Assembly: GCA_041645555.1 (NCBI GenBank)
Contig: JBAZPX010000001.1
Location: 22,505-86,504, forward strand
Reading direction: 5' to 3'
Length of the DNA: 64,000 bases
DNA from: Patescibacteria group bacterium
GTDB taxonomy: Bacteria > Patescibacteriota > Patescibacteriia > Patescibacteriales > JAQTRU01
Shown here: positions 2,788 to 31,410 of the stretch, in pieces
Numbering within the stretch: the stretch's first letter is position 1
How the letters are laid out: each line of letters starts with the position of its first letter
Program-made: the position numbers and the translations under genes
Notes under the pieces: model-generated
Databases searched by the model: none
The model's input: only the letters and a program-made list of their open reading frames with translations
What the model was told of the DNA's origin: nothing

Positions 2788-4277
<1,490 letters not shown>

Positions 4278-8190: not shown

Positions 8191-11058
8191 ATGGCGATTA
8201 AGCAATCCACCTCTGCTAAAGCTACGGTGGACAAGAAAAACAAGAAGGCGAGAAAGCCCCACGCCTCCTCCTCCGTCAAGACTACGGAGGACAAGAAGGC
8301 TTTGCGGGGCAAGCACGAAAACAAGTTGCCTAAGCGGATAAAAAAAATAAAATCCGAAGGGTTGGTTAAGGCGGCAAAAAAAGTTGATAAGGAAACCCTT
8401 CGGCAAGCTTCCGCCGACGCTAAAGCTTTGGCGGACAAGCAGGGTGAAAAAGGAAAAGGGTTAAAAGAAGAAATAAAGAAGCCTGTTTCTGCCATGCCGG
8501 AGAAAGAAAGTAAAAAGGATAAAGAGCAGCCAGGCAAAGAAGTGGCCGAGGTAGCGGAGAAAGAAGGAGAGAAAACCATAAAATCCCAGGTCGTGGACGG
8601 CCGCAAAAAAACTGAATATGGCATGGTCATACCCCAGTCAATTGTGGGAGAAATGAGTACCTGCTATCTGGATTATGCCATGAGTGTAATTGTAAGCCGG
8701 GCTTTGCCCGATGTCCGAGACGGTTTAAAGCCGGTCCATCGGCGAATCCTTTATGCGATGTGGAGTATTGGGTTGAAAGCCGGGGCTAAATTTAGAAAGT
8801 CAGCGACCGTCGTCGGTGAAGTTTTAGGCAAATACCATCCGCATGGCGATTCTGCGGTTTACGAATCCATGGTTCGTATGGCTCAGGATTTTTCAATGCG
8901 GTATCAATTAGTCAGGGGACAGGGAAACTTTGGTTCTATGGATGGCGATGGTGCCGCGGCCATGCGTTATACCGAAGCTAAATTATCTTCAATCGCCGAA
9001 GAGCTTATTTTTGATATTGATAGAAATACTGTTGATTTTATTCCTAATTATGACGGGTCGCAAAAAGAACCAACCGTCCTGCCCGCAAAACTTCCTAATT
9101 TATTGTTAAACGGCGTAATGGGGATAGCGGTCGGTATGGCGACAAATATTCCTCCGCATAATTTAAAAGAATTGGTTGACGCCATAACTTATTTGATTGA
9201 CAAGCCGGCCGCCACCGTAGAAGATTTGATGCAGTTTGTTAAAGGGCCGGATTTTCCGACCGGCGGGATTATTTATAATAATAAAGATATTTTACAGGCC
9301 TATGCGACCGGCAAGGCCGGAATCGTTATGCGGGGCCGGGCCGAAATTACTGAAACTAAAGGTGGCAATTTCCATATTATCATTACGGAAATTCCTTATC
9401 AGGTGAATAAAGCCACTTTAGTGGAAAAAATCGCCGATTTAGTAAAAGACAAAAAGATTGAAGGCATAAAAGATCTGCGGGACGAATCGGATAAGGACGG
9501 CGTGAGAGTTGTGGTTGAGCTTAAAAAGGACGCTTATCCGAAGAAAATTTTAAACAGCTTATATAAGCATACTCAGCTGCAGGAAACTTTTCATGTCAAC
9601 ATGCTGGCTCTGGTAGACGGCATCCAGCCGAAGGTTTTAACTTTAAAAATGATTTTGGAAGAATATATCAAGCACCGGGAAGAAGTGGTAAGGCGCCGGA
9701 CCCAGTTTGATTTAGATCGGGCTCGCGCGCGCGCCCATATTTTAGAAGGCTTGATGATCGCTTTGAATAATATTGACGCGGTCATAAAAACGATTAAAGC
9801 TTCCCGCGACAAAGAAGTAGCCAAAGTGAGTTTAATGAAGAGGTTTAAACTTTCCGAACTGCAGGCCATTGCCATCCTAGAAATGAAATTGCAGAGTCTG
9901 GCTAATTTAGAGAGATTAAAAATAGAAGAAGAATTAAAAGAAAAGAGGAAACTTATAAAAGATTTAGAAGAAATTCTTAAATCCCAGGCAAAGATAAGAG
10001 GAATTATCAAAAATGAAATTAAAGATTTAGCGGATAAGTTCGGTGATGAGCGCAAAACTCAGATTGTGGCCCATGGCGTAAAAGATTTTAGCATAGAAGA
10101 TTTAGTGCCGAACGAGGAAACTATGGTTACGATGACCCGGGACGGCTATATAAAACGCCTGACCCCGGATACTTTTAAAGTCCAGGCGAGAGGCGGCAAG
10201 GGCGTAATCGGCTTAACGACCAAAGAAGAAGATACGGTTGAATTTATGTTTACCACCTTTACCCATAGCGACATTTTATTTTTCACTACCCGCGGAAGAG
10301 TGTTTCAGCTTAAAGCTCATGAAATTCCGCAGGCCTCCCGTACGGCCAAAGGCACGCCGGTTGTAAACTTTTTGCAGCTTTTGGGCGAGGAAAAAATAAC
10401 TTCGGTCCTGCCTTTGGATAAAATTTCTAACAGCAAGTTTTTATTCTTTGCGACGGAAAGAGGGTTAGTTAAGAAAGTAAAATTGGAAGCTTTTGCTAAT
10501 GTCCGCCGGTCGGGTTTAATTGCCATTAAGATAAAAGGGGAAGATAAATTAATCTGGGCCAAGCCAACCGGCGGCAATGACCATATCCAATTAATTACGG
10601 CCGGCGGGCAATCGGTGCGTTTTCAAGAATCCGATGTCCGCGATATGGGCCGCAATGCCGCTGGGGTGCGGGGGATCCGGCTCAAGAAAGATGATATTTT
10701 GATTGGTATGGGAATTATCAAGGGCGACAAAGAGAAGATGAAAAAATATCAGGTCTTAACCATAATGGAGCAGGGTTTTGGCAAACGGACAGCCTTAGGA
10801 TTTTATAAAGTTCAGGGCCGGGGCGGATCAGGAATTAAGACCGCCAAGGTGACAAGCAAGACCGGCAAGCTGGTTAACGCTTTTATAGTTAATACCGAAT
10901 CTATGGAAGAAAAAGATTTAATTGTGATTTCGGAGAAGGGGCAGGTGATAAGGCTGCCTTTCAAATCCGTTAACCAATTAGGCCGGGATACGCAAGGCGT
11001 AAGGCTGATGCGGTTTAAAGAGCAAAGTGATAAAGTGGCTTGCGTAACTTGGGTGTAA
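8191..11058 (+). CDS. gyrA: DNA gyrase subunit A with ~150-aa lysine-rich N-terminal extension
   Basis: Motifs [42 protein letters not shown] (catalytic Tyr) and C-terminal beta-pinwheel repeats. The conserved core begins near aa 155, so a downstream start (about 8650) cannot be excluded. Confidence 0.9.
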
Positions 11059-13765: not shown

Positions 13766-14719
13766 ATGGAACCCAGAGAGATTAAAACTGAAAAAAATGC
13801 GGCGGAGGCAATTGTGGAGACAATTGCTTTTTTTGACTTATTCTCTTACCCCCTAACCGCTTTTGAGATTTGGAAATATATAAATATAAAATCCGAACTG
13901 GGCGAAGTTTTGGAAGTTTTAGAAAAACCCGCCTCTGTCCCGCTCGGCGGGACTACGGCGGGCAAGGACGGATTTTATTTTTTAGCTGGCCGGGCAGAGA
14001 TTATGAGGGAAAGAATGGCGAGATATAATTATACGGATAAAAAATTTAATCGGGCAATTTTACTCTCCAGAATTTTTAAATTTATTCCCTGGATAAAAAT
14101 GGTCGCGGTTGGGAATATCATCGGAGCGCATAACTTAAAAAAAGAAAGCGATATAGATCTGTTTATTATCACGGAGAAAAACCGGATTTGGCTAACCAGA
14201 TTTTTTTGCGTGCTAATAACAAAAACATTGGGGTTGCGTCCGAAACCCGAAGAAGCCAGGGATAAAATTTGCTTAAGTTTTTTTATTAGCGAGGAAGCGA
14301 TGAATTTAGAAAAGTTGATGCTGGCCGGCGGGCGAGATACATATTTTATTTATTGGCTGGCGGGGTTAGTACCGATTTATGACAAGGACGATATTTATAA
14401 TAAGTTTATAAAAGCCAACGTCTGGCTTAAAAATTATTTGCCTAATTGGATGGCCGGAGAAGTTAATTACCGGCGGGATGCCGGAAAAAGTTTTTCCCGG
14501 TTTTACCGCGATGTGGTTGATATGTTTTTCGGCGGGCTGGAAAGAAGAATTAAAGAAATTCAATTGGAAATAATGCCGAGACAAATAAAAGACATTATGA
14601 ATATGGACAGCCGGGTGGTGGTTGATGACAGAACAATAAAACTTCATGTTAATGACAGGAGAGAGGAATACGAAAATAAATTCAGAATTAAGAATAAAGA
14701 ATTAAGAATTAATTTATGA
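13766..14719 (+). CDS. hypothetical protein, possible Pol-beta-superfamily nucleotidyltransferase fold
   Basis: VGNIIGAHNLKKESDIDLFII resembles the G[GS]x9-13DhDh NTase motif. The 3' end carries a heptamer tract (agaatta/agaataa x4 at 14684-14711). Confidence 0.4.
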   Translation: MEPREIKTEKNAAEAIVETIAFFDLFSYPLTAFEIWKYINIKSELGEVLEVLEKPASVPLGGTTAGKDGFYFLAGRAEIMRERMARYNYTDKKFNRAILLSRIFKFIPWIKMVAVGNIIGAHNLKKESDIDLFIITEKNRIWLTRFFCVLITKTLGLRPKPEEARDKICLSFFISEEAMNLEKLMLAGGRDTYFIYWLAGLVPIYDKDDIYNKFIKANVWLKNYLPNWMAGEVNYRRDAGKSFSRFYRDVVDMFFGGLERRIKEIQLEIMPRQIKDIMNMDSRVVVDDRTIKLHVNDRREEYENKFRIKNKELRINL

Positions 14720-16119
14720 AAGTTGTAAGTAAAATCATAGAATATGGTCTGTATTTGTTGGTTTTTTTGCTGCCCTGGCAGACGCGCTGGATTATTAGGG
14801 CCGGGGAGACGGAATATACGACCTATAGTTTGTATGGAACAGATATAATTTTACTTATAGTTTTGTTATTGTTTGTTGTTCTGAAATGTCAAATGTCAAA
14901 TGTCAAATGTCAAACAAAATCCCAAATCCAAAATCCCAATTTTCAAATCAAAAAATTTTGGTACTTTGTGGGGTTGGTTGACTTATTTGTTTTTATTTCC
15001 ATATTTTTCGCGAATGATAAGTGGTTGGCTCTATATAAATACGGCTGGTTTTTGCTGGGAGTAGGGTTATTTTGGCTGATGACGAGCGCGAACTATAATA
15101 AGATAAAACTGATTTGGGCTTTGTTGGCGGGAATTTTTTTGCAGGCCGGTCTTGGTATCTGGCAATTTTTATCCCAATCAAGCTTTGCCAGTAAGTGGTT
15201 GGGAATGGCGCTCCATAATCCGGCTGAACTCGGTGTTTCGGTCGTGGAAACTTTTGGGAATAATGGAATAGGAGAAAGATGGCTTAGGACTTATGGGGGA
15301 CTGGATCATCCGAATATGCTGGGAGGAATTTTGGCGATAGGTGTTTTGCTTTTGATTGGATATCTGATCAAAAAATTTTCAATTTTCAATTTTCAATTTT
15401 CAAACAATTCTAAAATTTTCAATTTTCAAACAAATGCTAAATTATTGTATTATTTTATTATTTTATTATTTTTGTTAGCGTTGTTTTTTACTTTTTCCCG
15501 CGGAGCGTGGGCTGGGCTGTTGGCTGGAATATTTTTGTTATTATTTATATTTTTAATTAAAAAAGATTTTTTGAAGCAGAGGGAATTATTAAAGATAATT
15601 TTAGTCGGGGGAATTTTGATTTTTTTCTTGTTTAGCTTTTACGGCAATTTAGTTTTGACGCGCTTATCGCAAGACACTAGGCTGGAAATAAAATCAACCG
15701 AAGAAAGAATGGCGTCTTTTTCTGAAGCCAAGATTATTATAAAAGATAATTGGCTTTTTGGAACAGGAATCGGCAATTATACTTTAGCTTTGGAAAAAAA
15801 TAATCCCGGTCAAGAAAAATGGAATTATCAGCCGGTTCATAATGTGTTTATATTAGTCTGGGCGGAAGTGGGATTCTTGGGACTTTTAGGATTCTTGGGA
15901 CTTTTAGGATTCTTGGGATGGAGTTTGATGAGGAAGAAAAAATATTTTGGGTTGTCTATTCTTATCTCTTTAGTTATAATGATGATGGTTGACCATTGGT
16001 ATTGGAGTCTGCATTTCGGGATTTTATGGTTCTGGCTCTTGGCCGGACTGATGCTGACTAATACTGACCAAGGCGGACTCGGGCGGACTGACGCGGACTC
16101 TGGGCCTATTGCAAATTAA
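14716..16119 (+). CDS. O-antigen ligase / Wzy_C-family polytopic membrane protein
   Basis: Multiple TM segments and the FTFSRGAWAGLLAG Wzy_C-type loop motif. ATGA overlap with the upstream gene. Contains several in-frame simple-repeat tracts. Confidence 0.75.
   Translation: MKVVSKIIEYGLYLLVFLLPWQTRWIIRAGETEYTTYSLYGTDIILLIVLLLFVVLKCQMSNVKCQTKSQIQNPNFQIKKFWYFVGLVDLFVFISIFFANDKWLALYKYGWFLLGVGLFWLMTSANYNKIKLIWALLAGIFLQAGLGIWQFLSQSSFASKWLGMALHNPAELGVSVVETFGNNGIGERWLRTYGGLDHPNMLGGILAIGVLLLIGYLIKKFSIFNFQFSNNSKIFNFQTNAKLLYYFIILLFLLALFFTFSRGAWAGLLAGIFLLLFIFLIKKDFLKQRELLKIILVGGILIFFLFSFYGNLVLTRLSQDTRLEIKSTEERMASFSEAKIIIKDNWLFGTGIGNYTLALEKNNPGQEKWNYQPVHNVFILVWAEVGFLGLLGFLGLLGFLGWSLMRKKKYFGLSILISLVIMMMVDHWYWSLHFGILWFWLLAGLMLTNTDQGGLGRTDADSGPIAN
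14884..14950. repeat. heptamer tract (aaatgtc x4) followed by aaatccc/aaatcca words, inside the ligase ORF
   Basis: Read directly; encodes KCQMSNVKCQTKSQIQNPNFQ. Confidence 0.9.
15374..15430. repeat. heptamer tract (aattttc x4, then x2), inside the ligase ORF
   Basis: Read directly; encodes FSIFNFQFSNNSKIFNFQ. Confidence 0.9.
15871..15918. repeat. 18-nt tandem repeat ggattcttgggactttta x2.7 (GFLGLL x3)
   Basis: Read directly. The word gggattcttggga recurs at 21343-21355, with the variant gggattcttagga at 43746-43758. Confidence 0.9.
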
Positions 16120-16144: not shown

Positions 16145-16439
16145 ATCGCACCTTATAGTGAGCCAGTCGGAGAGAAAACAAGAGTGATTCCCTTATGAAG
16201 CATCGGCGAGCGTCTTTAGCATCGCCTAAAAGCCGTGATGCGATCTCGGTCTTCTAATACGAGAAAATGGGGAACAGCCCAAACCAGTTAATATTCTGGG
16301 GTCGTAGGGTCCTTGGCTTTAGAGTTAAAAGTCGGGAGTGATCCCGGCCTCTACAGGGAGACCCTGAGTAGGAGACTTCGGTCTCTGAATTTGCCACGTT
16401 AAAGTGGTAAGGCTAAACGAGACTGGCTCTCTTGTTTTT
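16145..16439 (+). ncRNA. candidate structured non-coding RNA, class not recognised
   Basis: Lies in a 640-nt gene-free gap. TTGCAA-N15-TATAAT at 16109-16135. Closing helix 16160-16168 / 16421-16429. GUGA-capped hairpin 16331-16348, UUCG-capped hairpin 16371-16386 and hairpin 16394-16407. A terminator follows directly. The tetraloops only make sense on the plus strand. Confidence 0.45.
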
Positions 16440-16470
16440 GAGGCGTTCTGCTTGCGGAACGCCTCTTTTA
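16440..16470 (+). terminator. intrinsic terminator after the ncRNA candidate
   Basis: gaggcgttc / gaacgcctc stem followed by TTTTA. Confidence 0.55.
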
Positions 16471-16516
16471 ATTGTATTCTTGGTATAAGAGGGATTAGAG
16501 CGGACTGCACCACTTT

Positions 16517-16693
16517 GTCATTGCGAGGAAGGAGCCGGGGCGACTGACGAAGCAATCTCGGGTTAGCTGAAAAAACAAGATAATTAAGAATAAGCTATTT
16601 GTTAAAATTAATGTTGATAATAAGTGTTTAATTAAATTAAATGTTACACTTTTAAACCAGAGATTGCTTCGTCGTGCGACTCCTCGCAATGAC
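16517..16693. repeat. inverted pair of 'gtcattgcgagga...cgaagcaatctc' elements flanking ~100 bp of AT-rich DNA
   Basis: Left copy 16517-16559 and right copy (reverse complement) 16660-16693. A third copy lies at 31411-31463. Confidence 0.8.
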
Positions 16694-16761
16694 AGGAGGA
16701 AAGGGATTTCTCACATAATATAAATAGTATAATAGAATCTCAATAATCTTAATAAGAATTT

Positions 16762-18024
16762 ATGTATAAACAAAAAAAATTAAAAAACGGTTTAAATTTA
16801 ATAACCGTGCCCATGACCGGGACGAAAACCATAACGATTTTGGTAATGGTTAAAACCGGGTCTAAATATGAAAATAAGAAAAATAACGGCATTTCCCATT
16901 TTTTAGAGCACATGTTTTTTAAAGGAACGAGAAAGCGGCCGACGACTTTAGCGATTGCCGGCGAACTTGATAAAGTTGGAGCGGAATTTAACGCTTTTAC
17001 TTCAAAAGAATATACGGGCTACTTCGTAAAGGTTGATAGTTCAAAGATAAAATTGGCAGTTGATATTGTGAGCGACATGCTCTTAAACTCTAAATTCGAC
17101 CCAAAAGAAATTGAGCGGGAAAGAGGGGTAATTATTGAAGAAATAAATATGCGCCACGACAACCCCATGATCCATATTGAGGACGTTTTTGAAGAGTGCC
17201 TTTACGGCGACAGTCCGGCCGGCTGGGAAGTGATCGGGGAGAAAAAAACTGTCTTGAAACTATCTCGGCAGGATTTACTTAATTATATAAAATCGCAATA
17301 TGGAACGGGTAGCGTAATTATCTGCTTAGCCGGCAATATTAAGGGCGGTAGTGAAAAGTTAATCAGCCGTTATTTTTCCCGTTTAGGAAAAACAGATTTT
17401 AAAGATAAAGTAAAAATAAAAGAAAAGCAGGCAAAGCCGCAAATTAAGATTTATTATAAAAAAACCGGGCAGGCCAATATTTCTTTGGGGGTAAGAGGAA
17501 TTCCGGTCGGCCACAAGGATGAATTTATTTTAAAAGTTTTATCTATTATTTTGGGCGGATCAATGAGTTCCCGCCTGTTTACGGAATTAAGGGAAAGAAA
17601 GGGTCTCGCTTATTACGTCCGGACCCAGGCCGAGTTTTACACGGATAGCGGCTATTTAACCACGCAGGCCGGCGTGCCGGTCGGGAAAGTTACCGAAGCC
17701 ATAAAAATAATTTTAGCTGAATATAAAAAGCTGAAAGATGCCTTAGTGGGCGGCAAAGAATTAAAAAGAACTAAAGATTTAATCCGCGGCCGCTCGGTAA
17801 TAAAGCTAGAAGCGTCTGACGATATGGCCGGCTGGTATGCGGAGCGGGCAATTTTGGAAGGTAAGGTTTTACCGCCGGATAATTTTTTTAGAAAAATAGA
17901 CGAGGTAAAGGCCAAAGATATAAAGGCCGAAGCGAAAAAGATTTTTGTAAACAAATGTTTAAATTTAGCCATCATCGGGCCGTTTAAAGATAAAAAAAGA
18001 TTTGAGAGGATTTTAAAGTTTTAG
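16762..18024 (+). CDS. M16 (pitrilysin/insulinase) family zinc peptidase
   Basis: HFLEHMFFKGT (HxxEH inverted zinc motif) and the two-domain length typical of M16B. Confidence 0.85.
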   Translation: MYKQKKLKNGLNLITVPMTGTKTITILVMVKTGSKYENKKNNGISHFLEHMFFKGTRKRPTTLAIAGELDKVGAEFNAFTSKEYTGYFVKVDSSKIKLAVDIVSDMLLNSKFDPKEIERERGVIIEEINMRHDNPMIHIEDVFEECLYGDSPAGWEVIGEKKTVLKLSRQDLLNYIKSQYGTGSVIICLAGNIKGGSEKLISRYFSRLGKTDFKDKVKIKEKQAKPQIKIYYKKTGQANISLGVRGIPVGHKDEFILKVLSIILGGSMSSRLFTELRERKGLAYYVRTQAEFYTDSGYLTTQAGVPVGKVTEAIKIILAEYKKLKDALVGGKELKRTKDLIRGRSVIKLEASDDMAGWYAERAILEGKVLPPDNFFRKIDEVKAKDIKAEAKKIFVNKCLNLAIIGPFKDKKRFERILKF

Positions 18025-18142
18025 ATTTAGCAAGATGAAATATTAGAGGAGAGGCCTCTGGCGTTTCTCTTTTTTTATTTGCTGATTTAATGATTATTAG
18101 CTATGATTATAGTATGGACCCGCCTCCGTCCCGCAATTTTGC

Positions 18143-18203
18143 GGGGCTTCGGCGAGGAAAGCCCGCCTTCGTTTTTCAACTTAATTTAGGGGCTTCGGCG
18201 AGG
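18143..18203. repeat. direct repeat of ggggcttcggcgagg (two copies 46 bp apart) within a cluster of GC-rich palindromes
   Basis: Copies at 18143-18157 and 18189-18203, with adjacent hairpin ccgcaattttgcgg. Confidence 0.75.
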
Positions 18204-18219
18204 CAAGAAACCAAACAAA

Positions 18220-21200
18220 ATGGAACAGAATTTAATGGAAAATTTAAATAAGGAGCAACTGAAAGCCGTCCTTCACAAGGATGGTCCTTTGTTAATCGTG
18301 GCCGGAGCCGGCACAGGAAAAACCACGGTTATTACCCAGAGAATCGCCTATATTATTGAGCAAGGCTGGGCGAAATCAGATGAGATTTTAGCTTTAACTT
18401 TTACGGAAAAAGCGGCCGGAGAAATGGAAGAGCGGGTTGATAGATTATTGCCTATGGGCTATCTAGATTTATGGATTTCCACTTTTCATGGTTTTGGTGA
18501 GAGGATTTTAAAAGAGCACGGCTTAGACATCGGGCTGCCTAATGATTCCAAATTGCTTAATGAATTTGAACAATATTCTTTAGTGAAAAAAAATCTGGAT
18601 AAATTTGATTTGGATTATTACCGGCCGATGGGCAATCCGACAAAATTTATCCATGCTTTGATAAAACATTTTTCCCGGGCTAAAGACGAAGACATTAGCC
18701 CGGCGCAGTATTTGGAGTATGCCCAAGAACTTAAGGAAAATTTGGATGGAATGTTAAGTGGGAATAAAAAAGTCATCACCGCCAAGGCGGGACAGGAAAG
18801 TCAAAAGTCAAAAGTCAAAAGTCTTTCAAATAAGGATGATGTTGATAAAGAAATAGCGGCACAGGAAGTGGCACGGATAAACGAAGTGGCGAATGCTTAT
18901 CATATTTATCAGCAATTACTGCTGGATAGCAATGCTTTAGATTTTGGAGATTTAATAAATTATTGCTTAAAATTATTCCGCGACCGGCCGGCGATTTTAG
19001 AAAAATACCGGAAGCAATTTAAATATATTTTACTGGATGAATTTCAGGATACTAACTGGGCGCAGTATGAACTCATAAAAATGCTGGCTAGCCCGAAAAA
19101 TAATTTGGTGGTCGTTGGCGACGATGACCAGTCAATTTATAAATTCCGCGGAGCTTCGGTTTCCAATATTTTGCAGTTTAAAAAAGATTATCCGCAGGCC
19201 GAGCAGATTTTTTTGGTAAATAATTACCGCAATAAACAAAATATTCTGGATTTATCTTATAAATTCATAAAGCAGAATGACCCGAACAGATTAGAATACC
19301 AATTACAAAAAAGTCAAAAGTCAAAAGTCACCCGCCTACCGGCGAGGCAGGAAAGTCAAAAGTTGAATAAGGAGTTAATAGCTGACAATAAGGGAGAGGG
19401 AGTGATAGAGGTTATAGAAGGAAAGAATTTGACCGAAGAAATAAAGGCAGTAATTGAAAAAATTGCGGATTTAAAAATTAAAGATAAAAATTCTACCTGG
19501 GACGATTTTGCAATTTTAGTCCGGGCGAATGAAAGCGCTAAAGAAATTTGTTCCTTTTTAGCCGCGGCCCAACTGCCTTATCAGTTTCTATCTTCCCGCG
19601 GCCTCTATACCAAGCCGGTAATAATGGACTTAATTGCTTATTTAAAATTACTGGACGATTATCACGAAAGCATAGCCGCTTACCGCGTTTTAAATCTGCC
19701 GATTTTTAATTTTACTTACCATGAGTTGGTCAATTTTAATTATTGGGCCAGTAAAAAAGCCTGGTCGCTTTATGAAATTCTGCGCAATGTTTCCGTCTTA
19801 AATTTAGGCGCGGAAGTCCAAAAAAAAGCCGAGGCGGTTTTGGCTTTAATCGCCAAGCACACGGGCTTAACGCGGGAGAAAAATGTCAGTGAAGTTATTT
19901 TAGCTTTTCTTAATGACAGCGGTTATTTAAAATATTTATTAGCGCAGGACGAGCAAAAAAGCCGGGAGACGGCCGGCTACCTTAACCAGTTTATGAAAAG
20001 AGTGGGAGAATTTGAAAAAGGCAGTGATGATAAAAGCGTTAAGGCTTTTTTAGACCAACTGCAGATGGAAATTGACGCCGGGGAAGAGGGAACCATGCCG
20101 GTTGACTGGGAGGCCGGCCCGGAAACGATTAAAGTAATGACAGTCCATGGAGCCAAGGGCTTGGAATTTAAGTATGTTTTTATTGCCGGTTTAGTGGACA
20201 AGCGTTTCCCGACGATTGAAAGAAGCGAACAAATTGAAATTCCGGACGCCCTAGTTAAAGAAATTTTGCCGGAAGGCGATATTCATTTGGAAGAAGAGAG
20301 GCGATTGTTTTATGTGGCTATGACTCGGGCGAAAAATGATCTGTATTTTTCCTGGGCGTCGGATTATGGCGGAGCCCGGCTTAAAAAACCTTCCCGTTTT
20401 TTAACAGAATGTGGGCTTATAAAAGAAAGCCCCACTACGCCAAAGCGCAATATTCCCGACGAAGATATTTTAAGAAATAAACCGATTATGGCCAGAGATA
20501 AAACTATTAACTTCTCCGTGCCGTCGTATTTTTCTTATACCCAGCTAGCGGCTTTTTCAAATTGTCCTTACCAATACCGCTTTGCCCATATTTTAAGGGT
20601 TCCGGTCAGAGGTAAGCACGTCTTTTCTTTCGGCAAAACCCTGCATATTACTTTGCAGAAATTATTCAGTTTAATTGAAGAAAAAAAGAAACGCAAACAG
20701 ACGGATTTGTTCGGCGCTTCGGCAAACTCAGCCCAGGCAGATAAAAAAGATGTTAAGATTAGTTTGGAAGAAATTTTAAAACTATATGAGCAATCCTGGA
20801 TTAATGACTGGTATGAGAATAAAGCGCGGAAAGAGGAATATAAAAAGAAAGGCAAGGAAATTTTAAGACAGTTTTATGAAAAAAATAAAAATGACTGGCC
20901 GAATGCTATTTTCCTGGAAAAGGGTTTTAACACTAAAGTTAAAGTTGGCAATGAATTGTATACGGTGCGCGGGGTAATGGACAGGATTGATGAGACAAAC
21001 GGCCACCGCCAAGGCGGGGCAGGGAAAATAAAGATTATTGACTATAAAACCGGAAACCCGAAGGATAAACTGGTTTTTGAAGAAAAGTATCAGTTATTAA
21101 TTTATCAGCTGGCGGCGCAAGAACTTTTCCGCCAGGAAATTGATTCTTTAACTTTTTATTATTTAGATAATAACACCGAAGTTAAATTTTTAGGCAGCCA

Positions 21201-21336
21201 GGATGAGCTGGAAAAAACAAAAGAAAAAATTATCAATACGATTGCCGAAATAAAAAAAGGCGAATTCCCTCCCAAGCCGTCGGCGCTTTGTAAATTTTGC
21301 GACTTTTTCGATATCTGCGAATTTAGGAAGAGTTAA
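18220..21336 (+). CDS. UvrD/PcrA-type superfamily 1 helicase fused to a C-terminal PD-(D/E)xK, Cys-cluster (Cas4/AddB-like) nuclease
   Basis: Walker A AGAGTGKT, DEFQDTN and helicase motifs through VHGAKGLEF. The C-terminus has FSNCPYQYRF, RIDE...IIDYKTG and CKFCDFFDIC. Confidence 0.85.
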   Translation: MEQNLMENLNKEQLKAVLHKDGPLLIVAGAGTGKTTVITQRIAYIIEQGWAKSDEILALTFTEKAAGEMEERVDRLLPMGYLDLWISTFHGFGERILKEHGLDIGLPNDSKLLNEFEQYSLVKKNLDKFDLDYYRPMGNPTKFIHALIKHFSRAKDEDISPAQYLEYAQELKENLDGMLSGNKKVITAKAGQESQKSKVKSLSNKDDVDKEIAAQEVARINEVANAYHIYQQLLLDSNALDFGDLINYCLKLFRDRPAILEKYRKQFKYILLDEFQDTNWAQYELIKMLASPKNNLVVVGDDDQSIYKFRGASVSNILQFKKDYPQAEQIFLVNNYRNKQNILDLSYKFIKQNDPNRLEYQLQKSQKSKVTRLPARQESQKLNKELIADNKGEGVIEVIEGKNLTEEIKAVIEKIADLKIKDKNSTWDDFAILVRANESAKEICSFLAAAQLPYQFLSSRGLYTKPVIMDLIAYLKLLDDYHESIAAYRVLNLPIFNFTYHELVNFNYWASKKAWSLYEILRNVSVLNLGAEVQKKAEAVLALIAKHTGLTREKNVSEVILAFLNDSGYLKYLLAQDEQKSRETAGYLNQFMKRVGEFEKGSDDKSVKAFLDQLQMEIDAGEEGTMPVDWEAGPETIKVMTVHGAKGLEFKYVFIAGLVDKRFPTIERSEQIEIPDALVKEILPEGDIHLEEERRLFYVAMTRAKNDLYFSWASDYGGARLKKPSRFLTECGLIKESPTTPKRNIPDEDILRNKPIMARDKTINFSVPSYFSYTQLAAFSNCPYQYRFAHILRVPVRGKHVFSFGKTLHITLQKLFSLIEEKKKRKQTDLFGASANSAQADKKDVKISLEEILKLYEQSWINDWYENKARKEEYKKKGKEILRQFYEKNKNDWPNAIFLEKGFNTKVKVGNELYTVRGVMDRIDETNGHRQGGAGKIKIIDYKTGNPKDKLVFEEKYQLLIYQLAAQELFRQEIDSLTFYYLDNNTEVKFLGSQDELEKTKEKIINTIAEIKKGEFPPKPSALCKFCDFFDICEFRKS

Positions 21337-21430
21337 CGGTGGGATTCTTGGGATGTTTTTGGAGATTTCATTTTGTTATTCCCAATAATCCCAAAGATCT
21401 TGAGAATCTTAAGAATCTCAACAAAAAACT

Positions 21431-21898
21431 ATGGATATAATTTCCCACGCTTTGTGGACAAATCTAATCTTTAAAGAACTGCCGCTTGAGCAAAGAGGTA
21501 TGGCGGTTTTATTTGGGGTGCTGCCGGATCTTATCAGTTTTTCTTCTTTAACTATCAGACATTTTGTCAGAAAGACTCTTCATTTTGAAGCTCCGCCCCT
21601 GGCAACCATACCCAGATATGTTTTTAAACTTTATGATGTTACCCATAGTTTAGTTATTTGGCTGGCGATATTTTTAGTTTTAAAAATTTTAGGTTTAGAT
21701 CTGGTGCTGGTGGTTTTCTACGCCTGGGGGTTGCATATTCTCTTGGATATTTTTACCCATACAACCGCATTTTTCCCCACTCCCATTCTTTGGCCATTTT
21801 CCCGTTTCCATTTTTCCGGCACAAACTGGTCCAATAAATGGTTTATGCTTTTTAACTACGCGGTTTTGCTGTTTATGTATTTGGTGTTTTATTTTTAA
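21431..21898 (+). CDS. small polytopic membrane protein, possibly a YdjM/DUF457-like metal-dependent hydrolase
   Basis: 155 aa with four hydrophobic segments and conserved-looking His residues (SHALW, THS, HILLDIFTH). Weak assignment. Confidence 0.4.
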   Translation: MDIISHALWTNLIFKELPLEQRGMAVLFGVLPDLISFSSLTIRHFVRKTLHFEAPPLATIPRYVFKLYDVTHSLVIWLAIFLVLKILGLDLVLVVFYAWGLHILLDIFTHTTAFFPTPILWPFSRFHFSGTNWSNKWFMLFNYAVLLFMYLVFYF

Positions 21899-21900
21899 AA

Positions 21901-21960
21901 CTACGAATTACGAATTTATACGAATTTACGAATCGAATTTTGAGATTTGTGAATTCGGGA
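21901..21960. repeat. heptamer 'tacgaat' word tract
   Basis: ctacgaattacgaatttatacgaatttacgaat; the same word family as the palindrome at 42557-42646. Confidence 0.85.
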
Positions 21961-22013
21961 GAAAGTGGTAAGATTGGAATATAAAGAGTGTTGCGGAGCG
22001 TAGGAACTAAAAT

Positions 22014-22343
22014 ATGAGCAAGAAGATTGCATTCAAGAGCGATAGATTTAAAAAAAACAGAGGTGGATATTCCCGTTGGTTGTTGTTAAGCTGCGAAAAA
22101 TGTAAAAATCCCGTTTTGCTTTACCAAAAGGATGGTCCGGGAATTCTCAAACGTCTCTATATTAATAGAATCGTTGTTCCTAAAATTCTTGCAGACAAAA
22201 ATTTAACCTGTAAAAAATGTAAAAAGGTGCTTGGCATTTGGATAGTATATCAAAAAGAAAATCGGCCAGCCTATAGATTATTTGCTGGCACAATTGAGAA
22301 AAAAATTTTTAAGGGAAATAAGTTACCGAAAATTAATTTTTAG
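22014..22343 (+). CDS. hypothetical zinc-ribbon protein
   Basis: Two CxxC pairs (CEKCKN, CKKCKK) in a 109-aa basic protein. Confidence 0.45.
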   Translation: MSKKIAFKSDRFKKNRGGYSRWLLLSCEKCKNPVLLYQKDGPGILKRLYINRIVVPKILADKNLTCKKCKKVLGIWIVYQKENRPAYRLFAGTIEKKIFKGNKLPKINF

Positions 22344-22371
22344 TTCCGCGGGCGCTTAGATAAGATTAAAT

Positions 22372-23418
22372 ATGGCAAGCAAACAACCCCAAAATTTGAA
22401 GGAAAGAATAATAAATCCGGAAGAACTGGGCAATGACAAAGCTTTGGATTTAACTTTGCGGCCAAAAAGATTAGGCGAATATGTGGGGCAGGACAAAATT
22501 AAGGAAAGCTTAAAAATTACCATGGCCGCGGCGCAAGGGAGAGGCGAGCCGATTGAGCATGTGCTCTTGCATGGCCCGGCCGGTTTGGGGAAAACCACTT
22601 TAGCGCACGTTATTTCCAATGAACTGGGAACGAATATTAAAATTACTTCTGGGCCAGCCATTGAAAAGGGCGGGGATTTAGCGGCAATTCTTACTAATTT
22701 AAGCGAAGGCGATATTTTGTTTATTGACGAGATTCATCGCTTAAATAAAACCATTGAAGAAATTTTGTATCCGGCCATGGAAGATTACGCCCTGGATATT
22801 ATAATTGGCAAGGGGCCGTCCGCCCGGACTTTGCGCATTGATCTGCCGCATTTTACCATAATTGGCGCCACCACCAAAGTAAGTTTATTATCCTCTCCAT
22901 TGCGCGACCGATTCGGACTTACTTACCGCCTGGATTTTTACGGCCTGGAAGATATTAATAAAATTATAAGCCGGAGCGCTAATATTTTAGGAGTAAAAAT
23001 AAAGCCGGAAGCCGTTGCCATTATTTCCGGGCGCTCCCGCCGCACTCCCCGCATTGCCAACCGTTTGTTAAAAAGGGTCAGGGATTATTGCCAAGTCAAA
23101 GGAAACGGGGAAGTGGAAGACGGGACCTGCGAGGAAGCTTTTAAAATACTGGACGTTGATGAATTGGGGCTGGACTGGATTGACCGGAAAATTTTAGAAA
23201 CCATTATTGATAAATTTAACGGCGGGCCGGCCGGCTTAAATGCTATTGCCGCGTCTACGGGGGAAGAAATGGCGACAATTGAAGAAATTTATGAGCCATA
23301 TTTAATGCAGTTAGGTTTTATTGACCGTTCTCCCCGCGGCCGGATTGTCACCGATACCGGCTATAAGCATTTAGGCCGAAAAAGGGACGAGAATAATCCT
23401 GTGAGTTTACGAATTTAG
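22372..23418 (+). CDS. ruvB: Holliday junction branch migration helicase RuvB
   Basis: LRPKRLGEYVGQ, GPAGLGKTTLA, FIDEIHRL and RTPRIANRLLKRVRD. Confidence 0.93.
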   Translation: MASKQPQNLKERIINPEELGNDKALDLTLRPKRLGEYVGQDKIKESLKITMAAAQGRGEPIEHVLLHGPAGLGKTTLAHVISNELGTNIKITSGPAIEKGGDLAAILTNLSEGDILFIDEIHRLNKTIEEILYPAMEDYALDIIIGKGPSARTLRIDLPHFTIIGATTKVSLLSSPLRDRFGLTYRLDFYGLEDINKIISRSANILGVKIKPEAVAIISGRSRRTPRIANRLLKRVRDYCQVKGNGEVEDGTCEEAFKILDVDELGLDWIDRKILETIIDKFNGGPAGLNAIAASTGEEMATIEEIYEPYLMQLGFIDRSPRGRIVTDTGYKHLGRKRDENNPVSLRI

Positions 23419-23467
23419 AGTTGTATTAAATTGGCGGGAAAGCGTAAAGCCGCTCATCACGTTTAAT

Positions 23468-24628
23468 ATGAGGTTAAAAGATTTTGACTACAATTTACCA
23501 AAAAATTTAATTGCCCAAAAACCTATCAAACCGCGAGACCATTCGCGGCTTTTATTACTTTCTAGAAAAACAGGCAAGATAAATCATAAACATTTTTATG
23601 ATATTTTAGATTATTTAAAGCCGGGCGATGTTTTAGTTTTAAACAATTCTAAAGTAATGCCGGCCCGGTTGCTTGGCGAAAAGAAAGAAACCGGGGGAAA
23701 AATTGAAGTTTTTTTACTAAGGAAAAAAATCCCTCCGCCTACGCCAAGGCTTCGGCGGACAAGCCCAACCCCCCTTTTGAAAGAGGGTAATATTTGGCAA
23801 TGCCTTTTGGGCGGTAAAAGGAGAAGAGAGGGGCTAGAAATTAAATTTAGCCAAGGTTTAGAGTGCCGGGTTATTAAAGATAATAAAGATGGTACGTGGG
23901 AAATAAAATTCAGTAAAGGCGGAAAAAAATTTATGAAGGTGGTGGAAAAAATCGGATTAACGCCTTTGCCGCCTTATATAAAGAGGGCCGCCGGACGTCC
24001 GGCTGACAACAAAGATTATCAGACGGTTTATGCCGATGATAAAAAAATTGGTTCCGTAGCCGCTCCGACAGCCGGTTTTCATTTTACCGATGTCTTATTA
24101 AAGAAACTTAAGAAGAAAGGCGTATTATTAGAATATGTTACTTTGCATGTCGGTTTGGGGACATTCGCGCCGGTTAAAGTTGATGATATAAAGAAGCACA
24201 AGATGCATGCGGAATGGGTGGAAGCGGATAAAAAAACCATCGCTGATATTTGTTTAGCTAAATCCGAAGGCAGAAGAATAATAGCGGTTGGGACAACGAG
24301 CGCAAGGACGCTAGAGAGCATTTTTCAAAAATTTCCGAATTCCAGAATTTCCGAATTTCCGAATAAAAATCTGAAATCTGAAATCCCTGCCTTGCCGGCA
24401 GGCAGGTTAGATCTTAAATTAAATGGCTGGACGGATATTTTTATTTATCCCGGCTATAAATTCAAAGCCGTTGATGCTTTAATTACTAATTTCCATCTGC
24501 CGAAATCCACTCTTCTAATGCTGGTTTCGGCTTTGGCCGGAAAGAAAAATATTGACAAGGCTTATAGGCAGGCGATAAAAAAGGAATACCGGTTTTATAG
24601 CTATGGGGATGCGATGTTTATTTATTAA
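23468..24628 (+). CDS. queA: S-adenosylmethionine:tRNA ribosyltransferase-isomerase QueA, carrying two repeat-derived in-frame insertions
   Basis: DFDYNLPKNLIAQKP, PRDHSRLL, APTAGFHFT, GTTSARTLES, GWTDIFIYPGYKFK and ITNFHLPKSTLLMLV. Confidence 0.9.
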   Translation: MRLKDFDYNLPKNLIAQKPIKPRDHSRLLLLSRKTGKINHKHFYDILDYLKPGDVLVLNNSKVMPARLLGEKKETGGKIEVFLLRKKIPPPTPRLRRTSPTPLLKEGNIWQCLLGGKRRREGLEIKFSQGLECRVIKDNKDGTWEIKFSKGGKKFMKVVEKIGLTPLPPYIKRAAGRPADNKDYQTVYADDKKIGSVAAPTAGFHFTDVLLKKLKKKGVLLEYVTLHVGLGTFAPVKVDDIKKHKMHAEWVEADKKTIADICLAKSEGRRIIAVGTTSARTLESIFQKFPNSRISEFPNKNLKSEIPALPAGRLDLKLNGWTDIFIYPGYKFKAVDALITNFHLPKSTLLMLVSALAGKKNIDKAYRQAIKKEYRFYSYGDAMFIY

Positions 24629-24692
24629 GAAACAATGATGGCTAAGGGGTTTGATTTTTTTTGCGTTAAATGTTATAGTTATTATAGTTATA

Positions 24693-24808
24693 GAATAAAA
24701 TAATAAAATAATATAAAAATAAAATAATATAAAAAATATAGGAAGAAATTTTTATTTAAGAGGTTTCTGATTTATTTTGTTATTTTATTATTTTGTTTTT
24801 ATATTTTT
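24693..24808. repeat. AT-rich quasi-palindromic element (copy 1)
   Basis: Shares a 20-nt word (aatataaaaataaaataata, 24710-24729) and a 21-nt word (tattttattattttgttttta, 24781-24801) with 41815-41834 and 41877-41897. Confidence 0.8.
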
Positions 24809-24817
24809 AAAATTCCC

Positions 24818-25381
24818 ATGCTAAGAGGCTTTTTTAGTTTTATTTTTGAACTAATTAAAATCATCGTTATTTCTCTAGTAATCATAATTCCAATCAGGTA
24901 TTTTTTAGTCCAGCCATTTTACGTTAAGGGCGCTTCCATGGAACCTAATTTTTATGACCGTGAGTACCTGATTATTGATGAAATAAGTTATAGATTCAGC
25001 GATCCGGAGAGAGGAGATATTATCGTTTTTCGTTACCCCAAAAATCCGCAGGAATTTTTTATAAAAAGAATTATCGGCCTGCCGGGTGAAAAAATCCAGA
25101 TAAAAGACGGCCAGATCCATATTTCCAACAATAGCAATCCGGATAGTTTTGTTTTAGATGAATCGTATTTGACAAACGGCACTAAAACCTATAGTTTAAC
25201 AGAGGATATTGTAAGTTTAGGCGAAAAAGAATATTTTGTCTTAGGCGACAACCGCAATTCCTCAAAAGATTCCCGCAGTTTCGGGTCGGTTAACCGGAGC
25301 TTTGTAACGGGCAAGGTAGTGCTTCGCGGCTGGCCCTTTAGCCGGATTAGCTTATTTAAGTTACCCGCATATCAATATTAA
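24818..25381 (+). CDS. lepB: signal peptidase I
   Basis: GASMEPN (catalytic Ser), KRIIGLPGE (Lys box) and GDNRNSSKDSR. Confidence 0.88.
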   Translation: MLRGFFSFIFELIKIIVISLVIIIPIRYFLVQPFYVKGASMEPNFYDREYLIIDEISYRFSDPERGDIIVFRYPKNPQEFFIKRIIGLPGEKIQIKDGQIHISNNSNPDSFVLDESYLTNGTKTYSLTEDIVSLGEKEYFVLGDNRNSSKDSRSFGSVNRSFVTGKVVLRGWPFSRISLFKLPAYQY

Positions 25382-27587: not shown

Positions 27588-29045
27588 TTAAAACTTTGGG
27601 AAAAAATTTTTAAGATTCTCTAAAGGATTTTTGGAATAATGCTTTATTTTATTGCGGGCGCTGGCGGTTTTAACGTATTTAAGCCAGGCTCGGTTCGGCC
27701 CTTTGCGGTTTTTTTCTATAATAATCTCCACTAAATCGCCGCTTTTTAATTCCTGGTCCAGGCTGGCGATTTTATCATTAATTATGGCTCCGACCGCCTT
27801 ATTGCCCACCTCCGAATGGACGGCATAGGCGTAATCGATCGGAGTGGATTTTTCCGGGAGTTCAAAGACATCGCCCTTGGGGGAAAAAACAAAAATCCGG
27901 TTGCTAAAAATATCAAACTTTATTTTTTTTATAAAATCGTTTGTATCCTCGGCTTCCCGCTGGATGTCTAAAATTTCTTTTATCCAGTAAGGCTGCCCCT
28001 CGTCCTTCCCGCCCCCTTTTTGCTTATAATGCCAATGGGCCGCAATTCCATAGAGGGCTTCATCATTCATTTCCTTGGTTCTAATCTGGAATTCTGTCGC
28101 TTTGCCCTCTGGCCCGAAGATAGTGGTATGCAGGCTTTTATAGCCGTTCGGTTTTGGGGAGGCGATATAGTCTTTAAAACGGTTAGCTTTCGGTTTCCAG
28201 AGAGCATGGATGATCCCCAAGGATTTGTAGCAGTCATTAACGGTCGGGACGATAATCCGGAGAGCAAAAACATCATAGATTTCGTTGAATTGCCTGTCTT
28301 TATTCTGCATTTTCTGGTAAATGCTGTAGAGATGCTTAAATCGGCTCTCTATTTCATATTTAATGTCCGCTTCATCCAATTTTTTCTTTAAGATATTTTT
28401 TATTTTTTGGATATACTGGTGGCGCTCCGCCTTTTTTTCCACTTCGTATTTGTATTCTAATTTTTTATATTCTTCCGGATAAAGATATTTAAAACAAATA
28501 TCTTCCATCTGCCATTTTAGGCTCCAGATTCCCAGTAAGCCGGCAATGGGAGCGTAAATTTCTAAAGTTTCTTTAGCGATCCGCAGGCGTTTTTCCGGAG
28601 GCAGAATTTCTAAAGTTCTTAAATTATGGAGCCGGTCGGCAAATTTAATTATGATAATCCTTAAGTCGCTCGCCATGGCTAAAAACATTTTTCTTAAACT
28701 TTCCCGGTATCTCTCAATGCCGCGGTATTTTATTTTACTTAATTTAGTAATTCCTTCGACCAAATAAGCGATTTCCTCGCCAAAATTTTTTTTAATATCA
28801 TCTAAAGTATATTCAGTGTCTTCCGGAATATCATGAAGGATGCCGGCAATAACCGTATTTAAATCCACCTTGATTTGCGCCAAAACAAAAGCGGTATGCA
28901 GGCAGTGCTCAATATAAAGTTCCCCGGTTCTTCTTTTTTGGTCGCCGTGGGCTTTAGCGGCAAAATCATAGGCCAATCTTAGCATATCCGTATCCGCTTT
29001 CGGGTTGTTTTCCCTCACTTTCTTTATTATTTGCTCAATTGTCAT
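27588..29045 (-). CDS. rel: bifunctional (p)ppGpp synthetase/hydrolase (RelA/SpoT homolog), short form ending after the TGS domain
   Basis: HD domain (HDIPEDT), synthetase domain (YKSLHTTIFG) and TGS (VFSPKGDVFELPEKSTPIDYAYAVHSEVG). At 485 aa it has no ACT-type C-terminus. Confidence 0.88.
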   Translation of the reverse strand: MTIEQIIKKVRENNPKADTDMLRLAYDFAAKAHGDQKRRTGELYIEHCLHTAFVLAQIKVDLNTVIAGILHDIPEDTEYTLDDIKKNFGEEIAYLVEGITKLSKIKYRGIERYRESLRKMFLAMASDLRIIIIKFADRLHNLRTLEILPPEKRLRIAKETLEIYAPIAGLLGIWSLKWQMEDICFKYLYPEEYKKLEYKYEVEKKAERHQYIQKIKNILKKKLDEADIKYEIESRFKHLYSIYQKMQNKDRQFNEIYDVFALRIIVPTVNDCYKSLGIIHALWKPKANRFKDYIASPKPNGYKSLHTTIFGPEGKATEFQIRTKEMNDEALYGIAAHWHYKQKGGGKDEGQPYWIKEILDIQREAEDTNDFIKKIKFDIFSNRIFVFSPKGDVFELPEKSTPIDYAYAVHSEVGNKAVGAIINDKIASLDQELKSGDLVEIIIEKNRKGPNRAWLKYVKTASARNKIKHYSKNPLENLKNFFPKF

Positions 29046-29154
29046 TTTTGTTTGCCATTTGGCTTTTATTTATGTTATAATAATATTAAATAACAAAACT
29101 GTGGAATAGTCAATCTAAAGATGAAATACTAAATTTAAAACAAAGCCTAAAAAA

Positions 29155-29289
29155 TTCCTAATTCACCTAATTTCTAATTCCTAATAAAATGTCAAATGCT
29201 AAATTTTAAAAAATATTTTTATAATTTGGCATTTTGGCATTAAGAATTTTAAATTTTATTAGTAATTAGGTGAATTAGAAATTAGAAAT
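29155..29289. repeat. large imperfect palindrome built from heptamer-like words in the divergent intergenic region
   Basis: ctaattcacctaat...ctaataaaatgtcaaatgctaaatt on one arm against aatttggcattttggcatt...attaggtgaattag on the other. Confidence 0.75.
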
Positions 29290-29297
29290 TTTAAAAA

Positions 29298-31379: not shown

Positions 31380-31410
31380 AATTTGATTCTAAACAATGGC
31401 ATTGTTTTTT

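Follow-up and report, generated by a model that had tools for sequence, protein, structure and literature searches.

Small GC-rich palindromes and heptameric arrays within a Patescibacteria helicase-nuclease gene: probable DNA-level micro-repeats tolerated in protein loops

The DNA analysed here is a stretch of 64,000 nucleotides (nt) from a Patescibacteria group bacterium, in the following referred to as the window, with a GC content of 34-47% across its length. At positions 18220 to 21336 of the plus strand it carries a gene for a UvrD/PcrA-type helicase fused to a C-terminal PD-(D/E)XK nuclease, as determined from the list of open reading frames (ORFs), the translation and Pfam. The reading frame is intact and encodes a product of 1038 amino acids (aa) with the domains UvrD-helicase (PF00580), UvrD_C (PF13361) and PDDEXK_1 (PF12705), the nuclease domain of the fusion being of the Cas4-like, four-cysteine type. 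The protein corresponds to the NCBI entry MFA4833248.1 ('Patescibacteria group bacterium') and is identical to it apart from the called start. The entry belongs to a contig of 301,472 bp, which was seen in a single sample, and the nearest database proteins carry Patescibacteria or Falkowbacteria names. An initial annotation of the window had pointed out three inserted segments within this gene, in which GC-rich palindromes occur together with runs of heptamers, and had proposed that palindrome and heptamers travel as one unit and that the gene may be subject to reversible inactivation. All three segments were found in the window and their translations (VITAKAGQESQKSKVKS, QKSQKSKVTRLPARQESQK and RIDETNGHRQGGAGKIKIIDYKTG) are as given there. 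The positions were also correct, except that the first quoted string ends at 18823 and not at 18826.

All three sites were described on the plus strand. At site 1, a 21-nt GC palindrome unit termed H1 (TCACCGCCAAGGCGGGACAGG, 18776-18796), which forms a weak hairpin of -3.8 kcal/mol, is preceded by the left portion of an AAAAGTC array (AAAAAAGTCA, 18766-18775) and followed by a tandem array of (AAAGTCA) x 3.9 at 18797-18823. Site 2 consists of an (AAAAGTC) x 3.1 tandem array at 19309-19330, a 21-nt palindrome to its right (CCCGCCTACCGGCGAGGCAGG, 19331-19351; fold of -5.1 kcal/mol) and the continuation of the array beyond the palindrome (AAAGTCAAAAGT, 19352-19363); the tandem arrays at 18797-18823 and 19309-19330 were identified by Tandem Repeats Finder and by a scan for perfect runs. 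Site 3 (21003-21023) is a 21-nt palindrome unit, CCACCGCCAAGGCGGGGCAGG, with no heptamers alongside. All of the palindromes are short. Those of sites 1 and 3 consist of 5-bp CCGCC/GGCGG arms around an AA spacer, and the one at site 2 is imperfect, having two mismatches to the widespread 21-nt sequence CCTGCCTGCCGGCGAGGCAGG (PAL21), each of which breaks a stem pair without compensation. As single-stranded DNA the palindromes fold weakly, at -3.8 to -6.6 kcal/mol with z-scores of -1.5 to -2.0. The 17-mer AAGTCAAAAGTCAAAAG occurs three times and the 23-mer CACCGCCAAGGCGGGRCAGGRAA twice, against an expectation of 0 in both cases.

Removal of 18776-18796 from site 1 leaves an array of ~5 AAAAGTC units in register with a period-7 match of 0.93, and removal of 19331-19351 from site 2 leaves a perfect 34-nt AAAAGTC array of ~5 units with a period-7 match of 1.0. 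As cutting out the palindrome restores the array, the palindrome is nested in register inside the array and not fused to its end. Arrays of this period are not restricted to the helicase gene. Across the window, perfect period-7 runs occur 8 times against 0.1 expected under a third-order Markov model, an enrichment of ~80-fold, and runs of periods 4-6 are at the expectation of the same model.

To place the segments in a wider context, the helicase protein was aligned with 27 orthologues, and relative to these the segments are indeed insertions, as had been claimed. Sites 1 and 2 are linkers that vary in length and content across every aligned orthologue, and site 3 is missing in 22 of the 27. 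At the same sites, other orthologues contain repeat-derived peptides, such as NFQFSISNFQ (from AATTTTC units), KVKSQKSKV (AAAGTCA units) and NTKTQKH (from the octamer AACACAAA), as well as GC-hairpin-like peptides. Length variants of the helicase within clusters of at least 90% protein identity also fall at these sites. In an AlphaFold model of the helicase, which was used solely to call sites as coil or low-confidence, residues 172-208 and 335-394 (sites 1 and 2) have predicted local distance difference test (pLDDT) values below 50, and residues 928-935 at site 3 form a coil between two beta strands of the nuclease domain. A separate source of length was seen in about one tenth of the listed close orthologues (P0002, P0011, P0016, P0019 and others; loci L147 and L148), which are ~1400 aa long because the helicase is interrupted by an intein with Hint and Intein_splicing domains. 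No Rfam family matched the hairpins or arrays, and the sole match within 18000-25000 was sub-threshold. It concerned RF03531, a Clostridioides difficile sRNA described as 'included into helicase gene', at 20263-20359 (+) with 38.9 bits against a gathering score of 65.2, and most likely reflects conserved helicase coding sequence.

The content of the sites was then compared between relatives. The loci L001 and L002 are syntenic to the window at ~80% nucleotide identity. In the helicase gene of L001, site 1 is made of AATTTYC heptamers and site 2 of A-rich heptamers that are degenerate; that of L002 carries 'tgtcattgcgagg...gcaatctc' elements at site 1 and, at site 2, an array of the AACACAAA octamer broken by a 32-nt hairpin. 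The site 3 unit is common by descent to the window, L001, L146 and L002, and has decayed in L002. Even near-identical strains differ by presence or absence of a unit or by replacement of a whole cassette. Despite 98.8% identity between L001 and L146 over 3075 nt, site 2 is swapped for an octamer array with a nested hairpin, and L147 and L148, at 98% identity, have site 1 arrays made of unrelated units. At site 3, L147 has exactly 21 nt more than L148, namely CCACCGCCAAGGCGGGGCAGG at the apex of another copy, and the resulting arrangement is AABB, unlike the ABAB of a tandem duplication. The H1 21-mer, located at site 1 in the window, lies at site 2 in L147 and L148, within a different A-rich repeat.

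The AAAGTCA unit has no stop codon in any of the three frames of the coding strand. Its reverse strand contains TGA, and an array of at least three units puts this TGA in every frame, which accounts for the coding copies all being oriented alike. Every genic array of at least three units in the window, L001 and L002 was stop-free in each frame of the coding strand; units capable of forming a stop were, within genes, always present in fewer than three units, and intergenic arrays mostly contained stops. Whether all intragenic tracts have lengths divisible by three had been raised as a check in the initial annotation; they do not (27, 22, 31 and 30 nt). Only the net insertion length is constrained, not the tract length.

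Dispersal to unrelated genes and genomes was observed when metagenome contigs were scanned for the junction GRCAGGAAAGTCAAAAGTC, which returned 23 stretches, many of them single-unit chance matches. A cassette of ~54 nt, consisting of (G)AAGTCAAAAGTCA, a 21-nt CCTGCCTGCCGGCGAGGCAGG-like palindrome and AAAGTCAAAAGTCAAAAGT, was found in the same phase, in frame and gene-oriented in four unrelated genes on four other metagenome contigs: polA (DNA polymerase I), ahcY (adenosylhomocysteinase, AdoHcyase), miaA and ligA (NAD-ligase). In these genes the cassette is translated as ..HLPAGEAGKSKVKS.. (..AGKSKVKS..), and in the window, in a different frame, as ..TRLPARQESQK... Translation of one cassette in two frames speaks against the peptide having been selected. 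The mutated copies (site 2, L012 and site 3 of L002) lose stem pairing without compensation, indicating that no structure is maintained in the coding copies; the non-coding cassette copies (L005, L024) have the perfect 20-mer CCTGCCTGCCGGCAGGCAGG. The idea of palindrome and heptamers travelling as one unit therefore holds for the cassette, the junction of G(G/A)CAGG with AAAGTCAAAAG recurring in the four unrelated genes, but does not hold in general because the two parts are separable: H1 changes sites, site 3 is free of heptamers, and arrays also occur without hairpins, as in a gene with a Wzy_C domain and in L001, which hold heptamer arrays lacking hairpins. Conversely, the archetypal palindrome occurs with many other array units and also alone. 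When the 54-nt cassette was compared by BLAST with plasmids and with the genomes of cultured phages, only partial matches at chance level were obtained. Exact 19-nt AAAGTCA arrays were seen in unannotated stretches of Nostocales plasmids (H19, H21 and H22, from Nostoc, Anabaena and Sphaerospermopsis), with chance-level E-values.

The archetypal palindrome, the 20-nt sequence CCTGCCTGCCGGCAGGCAGG, is in the following termed PAL. A scan of one genome per species with the pattern CCTGCCTGCCGGC(N0-1)AGGCAGG returned at least 120 stretches, placing PAL in at least 120 species of many phyla. Among the matches listed, carriers belong to many Patescibacteria classes, Bacteroidota, Omnitrophota and Planctomycetota, and further to uncultured Proteobacteria, Thermodesulfovibrio and one Chloroflexi genome. 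PAL is also present in draft genomes of cultured isolates, namely Winogradskyella echinorum KCTC 22026, Flagellimonas yonaguniensis, Longitalea luteola and a Flavivirga sp. Viral contigs yielded 54 PAL stretches, with at least 6 copies on some contigs, whereas two control palindromes matched in composition and shape gave 0 and 0 matches. Among the papers searched, none contained the PAL sequence or the peptide PACRQAG, and nothing relevant was found on repeats in candidate-phyla bacteria.

PAL recurs in several contexts. It is found in register inside arrays of 7-8-nt units or nested in other hairpins, among them the 'tgtcattgcgagg' element, which the window also contains; a T run sometimes follows. 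In L048 and L076, PAL is nested inside PAL. Of 110 copies, 17% lie in tandem arrays, compared to 1.8% of control positions (~9 times as many), period 7 being the commonest, and 21% lie in spanning ORFs compared to 67% of the controls. PAL was also seen beside or within tRNA genes. At 2224-2364 of L182 (IMGVR_UViG_3300033148_008720), a tRNA-Met(cat) gene has the 20-nt palindrome exactly in its variable loop, and ARAGORN recognizes the tRNA with the insert in place (92 nt) as well as once it has been excised (72 nt). L151 contains the same tRNA, truncated beside the palindrome, and in L043, L071 and L194 the palindrome comes after a 5' tRNA fragment that breaks off at the D loop. We considered PAL as an intron-like tRNA insert in general, but only L182 is clean; L129 gave a weak tRNA-Arg call after excision and the other cases are fragments or truncated.

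From these results we consider it likely that the segments in the helicase gene are DNA-level micro-repeats that came to lie in surface loops of an essential-type repair enzyme, where they are tolerated, and that do not act as a switch. Two components would be involved: A-rich tandem arrays of 7-nt, sometimes 8-nt, units that arise and turn over quickly in the lineage, and GC-rich palindromes of ~20-21 nt that would form a dispersed family with CCTGCCTGCCGGCAGGCAGG as its archetype and are found nested in the arrays, in the apex of other hairpins and in copies of themselves. Spread may be of a copy-and-paste type acting on structure-prone DNA, with template switching, ectopic gene conversion or a trans-acting enzyme as candidates, and homologous recombination would shuffle whole cassette alleles between strains. 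The palindromes might in addition promote slippage-duplication of their flanks and, between flanking direct repeats, their own precise removal. Purifying selection would then filter what survives in genes, that is, insertions of a net length divisible by three (21 nt being 3 x 7), with array units stop-free in three frames and in coding orientation, located in loops where extra residues are harmless. The encoded K/S/Q/V-rich peptide would be a by-product and not a selected function.

Several observations weigh against this interpretation. The flanks of both replaced sites (site 2 of L001/L146 and site 1 of L147/L148) are diverged, which suggests import of another allele by recombination and not fresh insertion; on these grounds, fresh transposition was rejected as the reason why the cassettes of sites 1 and 2 differ between strains. 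Exact flanking direct repeats were found at 8 of 163 PAL copies, six of 7 nt and one of 8 nt, and even if one mismatch is allowed, a 7-nt flanking repeat is present at ~9% of the 163 copies and ~90% have none. As most copies lack such a repeat, simple transposition with target-site duplication fails, and PAL insertion with a 7-bp target-site duplication, repeated cycles of which would build up the arrays, was rejected as a general rule, 155 of the 163 copies being without an exact repeat. No mobilising enzyme or insertion mechanism was identified. In the GTDB sample, 2 of 15 copies of the 21-nt form and 21 of 95 copies of the 20-nt form lie in ORFs, so that the 21-nt form is not enriched there. 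A preference of the 21-nt form for genes and of the 20-nt form for positions outside them, although it fits the cassettes from the metagenome scan, fails in this sample and is not claimed. The palindromes at sites 1 and 3 (CCGCCAAGGCGG core) are only loosely PAL-like and may belong to a separate family. In addition, the helicase model is of poor quality, with a mean pLDDT of 61 and a predicted template modelling score of 0.32, which makes the assignment of the sites to loops soft, and the lysine-rich linkers may have a role of their own.

A more far-reaching proposal, which we put forward tentatively, concerns PAL itself. CCTGCCTGCCGGCAGGCAGG and its 21-nt derivatives could represent an ultra-small palindromic element of 20-21 nt that is mobile across phyla, possibly phage-carried, and that inserts into structure-prone DNA such as tandem arrays of 7-8-nt units, hairpin apexes, itself and tRNA loops; in candidate-phyla bacteria it might travel with A-rich heptamer arrays as the ~54-nt cassette and so repeatedly remodel loops of housekeeping proteins.

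Alternatively, arrays and hairpins could be of purely local origin, the former arising by polymerase slippage and the latter by quasi-palindrome template switching with no movement between loci. Heptameric repeats are over-represented in bacteria, which has been attributed to the polymerase footprint (PMC4692102), and the AABB arrangement at site 3 of L147 could result from arm duplication followed by intrastrand correction. However, identical 20-21-mers and the whole ~54-nt cassette recur in unrelated genes and genomes, and the 54 PAL stretches on viral contigs stand against none for either matched control. Moreover, the array units AATTTTC, AAATGTC with AAAATCC, and AAAGTCA recur at different loci while orthologous sites differ in their unit. 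We therefore regard an exclusively local origin as improbable.

Selection of the inserts as an adaptive protein feature, i.e., as flexible lysine-rich linkers or disordered regions for DNA enzymes, would agree with their position in frame, in loops predicted to be disordered, and with their richness in K, S and Q; the tandem repeats of Borgs, which create disordered regions, are thought to be selected (PMC9879509). The Borg repeats differ in that the units described here are not multiples of three (PMC9879509). In addition, the reading frame in which the cassette is translated changes from gene to gene, strains that are 98-99% identical have unrelated peptides at the same site, and the elements are equally present in intergenic DNA and, on one viral contig, in a tRNA gene. 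Thus, an origin by selection on the peptide appears unlikely, slightly more so than local origin.

The reversible inactivation proposed in the initial annotation would make the helicase gene a contingency locus, in which one-copy slippage of the 7-nt units reversibly frameshifts the helicase-nuclease and gives rise to transient mutator or hyper-recombination subpopulations. In favour of this, the unit length of 7 nt is not divisible by three, the repeats in the tracts are perfect, and a coding heptanucleotide repeat (AAGACTC) has a precedent in neuO (PMC13001214). In neuO of E. coli K1, 3-53 heptamer units (mode 20) are located at the 5' end of the gene, 66% of the complete genomes are out of frame, and full-length protein results only from copy numbers divisible by three (PMC13001214). 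While the 7-nt coding repeat is shared with neuO, the tracts of the helicase gene are short, with 3.1-3.9 units, and lie in internal linkers instead of the 5' end. All nine helicase genes that were read as DNA were intact with none out of frame, and all 27 aligned orthologues were full length, a sample that is small and in which split genes would rank low in the protein search. Relatives have other units or no array at the same sites. Furthermore, the same arrays occur in queA, the gene with the Wzy_C domain, polA, ligA, miaA, ahcY and intergenic DNA, indicating that the tracts are not tied to a repair gene. With short internal tracts, intact genes throughout and tracts in unrelated genes, a mutator switch is unsupported and, in our view, very unlikely. 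An assembly or sequencing artefact is hardly credible: most carriers are metagenome-assembled genomes, but the frame is kept in intact genes, the assemblies are independent and come from different samples and centres, point-mutated variants occur, and PAL is present in drafts of cultured isolates.

Elsewhere in the window, arrays were found in frame in further genes on the plus strand. The gene with the Wzy_C domain (O-antigen ligase-like) contains the heptamer arrays AAATGTC x 4.4 and AAATCCC x 3.3 at 14884-14939 (site A); at the orthologous site L002 has AATTTTC x 4 where the window has AAATGTC. At 15374-15472 of the same gene (site B) lie arrays of AATTTTC and ATTATTTT; the AATTTTC array is present in both the window and L002, and that of L002 contains a 30-nt double hairpin. 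The insert at 24333-24406 of queA consists of TTCCGAA-type and (AAATCTG) x 2.7 arrays followed by the 21-mer CCTGCCTTGCCGGCAGGCAGG at 24386-24406. Excision of this palindrome restores a continuous heptamer array, and L016 has a PAL21 copy that equals the 21-mer in reverse complement. Three genomes compared at this position (queA site B) had three unrelated inserts. Further heptamer arrays are located in intergenic DNA of the window, and over 20 kb of synteny between the window and L002 arrays or GC hairpins make up many of the indels in coding sequence.

The GC hairpins of the window form a loose family, in which CCGCC, a loop and GGCGG are followed by (G/A)CA(A/G)G. Eight copies were counted, three in the helicase gene, two in a spacer and one each in a gyrA-like ORF, the ORF at 13766-14719 and queA, and all eight are on the plus strand. 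The copy in the ORF at 13766-14719 is a nested GC hairpin (13928-13971) with outer CCCGCC/GGCGGG and inner GTCCCGC/GCGGGAC arms and a 3' CAAGG tail, and folds at -15.7 kcal/mol with a z-score of -3.4. The spacer copies lie directly upstream of the helicase gene (18116-18207), one nested (18116-18160) and one partial (18190-18207). The gyrA-like ORF (8191-11058) carries a CCGCCGACGCTAAAGCTTTGGCGGACAAG hairpin at 8409-8439. In queA, a longer GC hairpin of the CCGCC...GGCGGACAAG type occupies 23731-23774 and is not present in L002; queA contains a second, PAL-type palindrome besides this copy. Nearly all long ORFs of the window are on the plus strand, and the cumulative GC skew climbs almost monotonically.

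A number of further repeats and features were noted in the window. Elements of the type 'tgtcattgcgagg ... cgaagcaatctc' occur at 16518-16560, 16660-16695 and 31410-31462; two of them form an inverted pair and the third has a nested hairpin, CCCGTCCCGC..GGGACGGG. This is the element type that occupies helicase site 1 in L002, and it hosts the 20-nt palindrome in L084 and L135. The divergent intergenic region at 29153-29290, between the ORFs 27588-29045 (-) and 29298-31379 (+), contains heptamer arrays that are mutual inverted copies (AATTCCT/AATTTCT versus AGAAATT/AATTAGA); in the L002 counterpart the left array contains a 35-nt hairpin, CCCGCCTACCTAGCTGCCGTAGGCTAGCGGGCAGG. The C-terminus of the Wzy_C-domain ORF has a 10-nt GC-rich tandem repeat, GGCGGACTCG x 3.3, at 16072-16105, which is not present in L002, and the ORF starting at 29298 contains a 74-nt G-rich, glycine-coding island (29654-29727); both are further coding segments derived from repeats. 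A candidate structured non-coding RNA of ~330 nt lies at 16150-16495 (+), in a 640-nt gap between the Wzy_C-domain gene and an M16 peptidase gene. It is predicted to be closed by the stem GAGCCAGUC/GACUGGCUC and to contain a hairpin resembling a terminator, and it folds at -125 kcal/mol with a z-score of -3.67. The candidate at 16150-16495 did not match any Rfam family, and most of the 640-nt gap has no counterpart at the syntenic position of L002. A 16S rRNA gene is located at 2789-4277 (-), and no 23S or 5S gene lies within the 64 kb, suggesting that the rRNA genes are unlinked here.

Among known systems, the GC clusters of yeast mitochondria appear to be the nearest analogue. These are short GC-rich palindromes in an AT-rich genome, with optional clusters that form in-frame strain polymorphisms of var1; they insert into loops of other clusters, merge and shuffle, act as recombination hot spots and are linked to AT-rich expansion (PMC8811140). 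In the mitochondria of Magnusiomyces, GC clusters located in coding regions are reportedly skipped by translation. AT-flanked GC palindromes, in-frame insertion polymorphisms and nesting at a hairpin apex were likewise found here. In contrast, the copies listed here have no AG/TAG terminal repeats, the hosts are bacteria and phage-like contigs and not organelles, the association with 7-nt tandem arrays is tight, and one exact 20-mer extends across phyla.

A second likeness is to the small dispersed repeats (SDRs) of Nostoc. SDR4-6, as described by Elhai and colleagues in 2008, are reportedly hairpin units of 21-27 nt that often lie within tandem heptamers and are mutually nested, and their presence or absence is said to vary between relatives. 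The 21-nt units in register in arrays and the self-nesting at L147 site 3, L048 and L076 resemble this description. SDR5 inserts in HIP1, and SDR-like repeats were not found outside Nostocaceae among the cyanobacteria examined (PMC5861425). The host phyla and probably the sequences differ, the comparison with the SDRs being one of descriptions, and the inserts described here are often in frame inside housekeeping genes.

Other classes are more distant. Rickettsia palindromic elements (RPEs) are selfish elements of ~150 bp located in frame in unrelated metabolic genes at fold-compatible positions (PMC10969869). Palindromic repeats in frame within unrelated genes are common to both, but RPEs each encode a conserved peptide, whereas the inserts are of 21-54 nt with a cassette read in two frames and are not RPEs. 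Repetitive extragenic palindromic (REP) elements, linked to REP-associated tyrosine transposases (RAYTs), are GC-rich imperfect palindromes of 20-40 nt in many copies (PMC3733652). This form is shared; however, REPs are extragenic with a GTAG or CGTC end tag, while the palindromes described here end in CAGG or CAAGG, are tag-free, are often intragenic and do not belong to the REPs. Nor do they belong to the miniature inverted-repeat transposable elements, which have terminal inverted repeats, a target duplication of fixed length and a size of ~50-500 bp, compared to 20-21 nt (~54 nt for the cassette) and, at most copies, no flanking repeat here. Heptameric simple sequence repeats (Mrazek 2007; Xanthomonas, and Nostoc GGGAATC-type) show an excess of period 7 and vary in length and sequence between close relatives (PMC4692102). 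The specific period-7 excess and the fast divergence between close relatives are shared, but those repeats are mainly intergenic and G-rich, in contrast to the A-rich, often intragenic arrays with nested palindromes in the present case.

If the inserts are indeed tolerated micro-repeats, non-triplet tandem repeats within a gene need not signal phase variation. The occurrence of PAL in many phyla, phage-like contigs, heptamer arrays, hairpins and one tRNA raises a testable question on how very small palindromes spread, one likewise posed by the GC clusters of yeast mitochondria and the SDRs of Nostoc, and the cultured Bacteroidota carrying PAL are possible experimental hosts. If its movement across phyla is true, PAL would be one of the smallest known mobile elements and would correspond, in bacteria, to the GC clusters of mitochondria. 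If the interpretation of the inserts as tolerated micro-repeats is true, DNA-level repeats, and not selection on the protein, would account for a large part of how conserved Patescibacteria proteins vary in length, which would bear on annotation, alignment, phylogeny and the reading of 'extra' loops in these bacteria.

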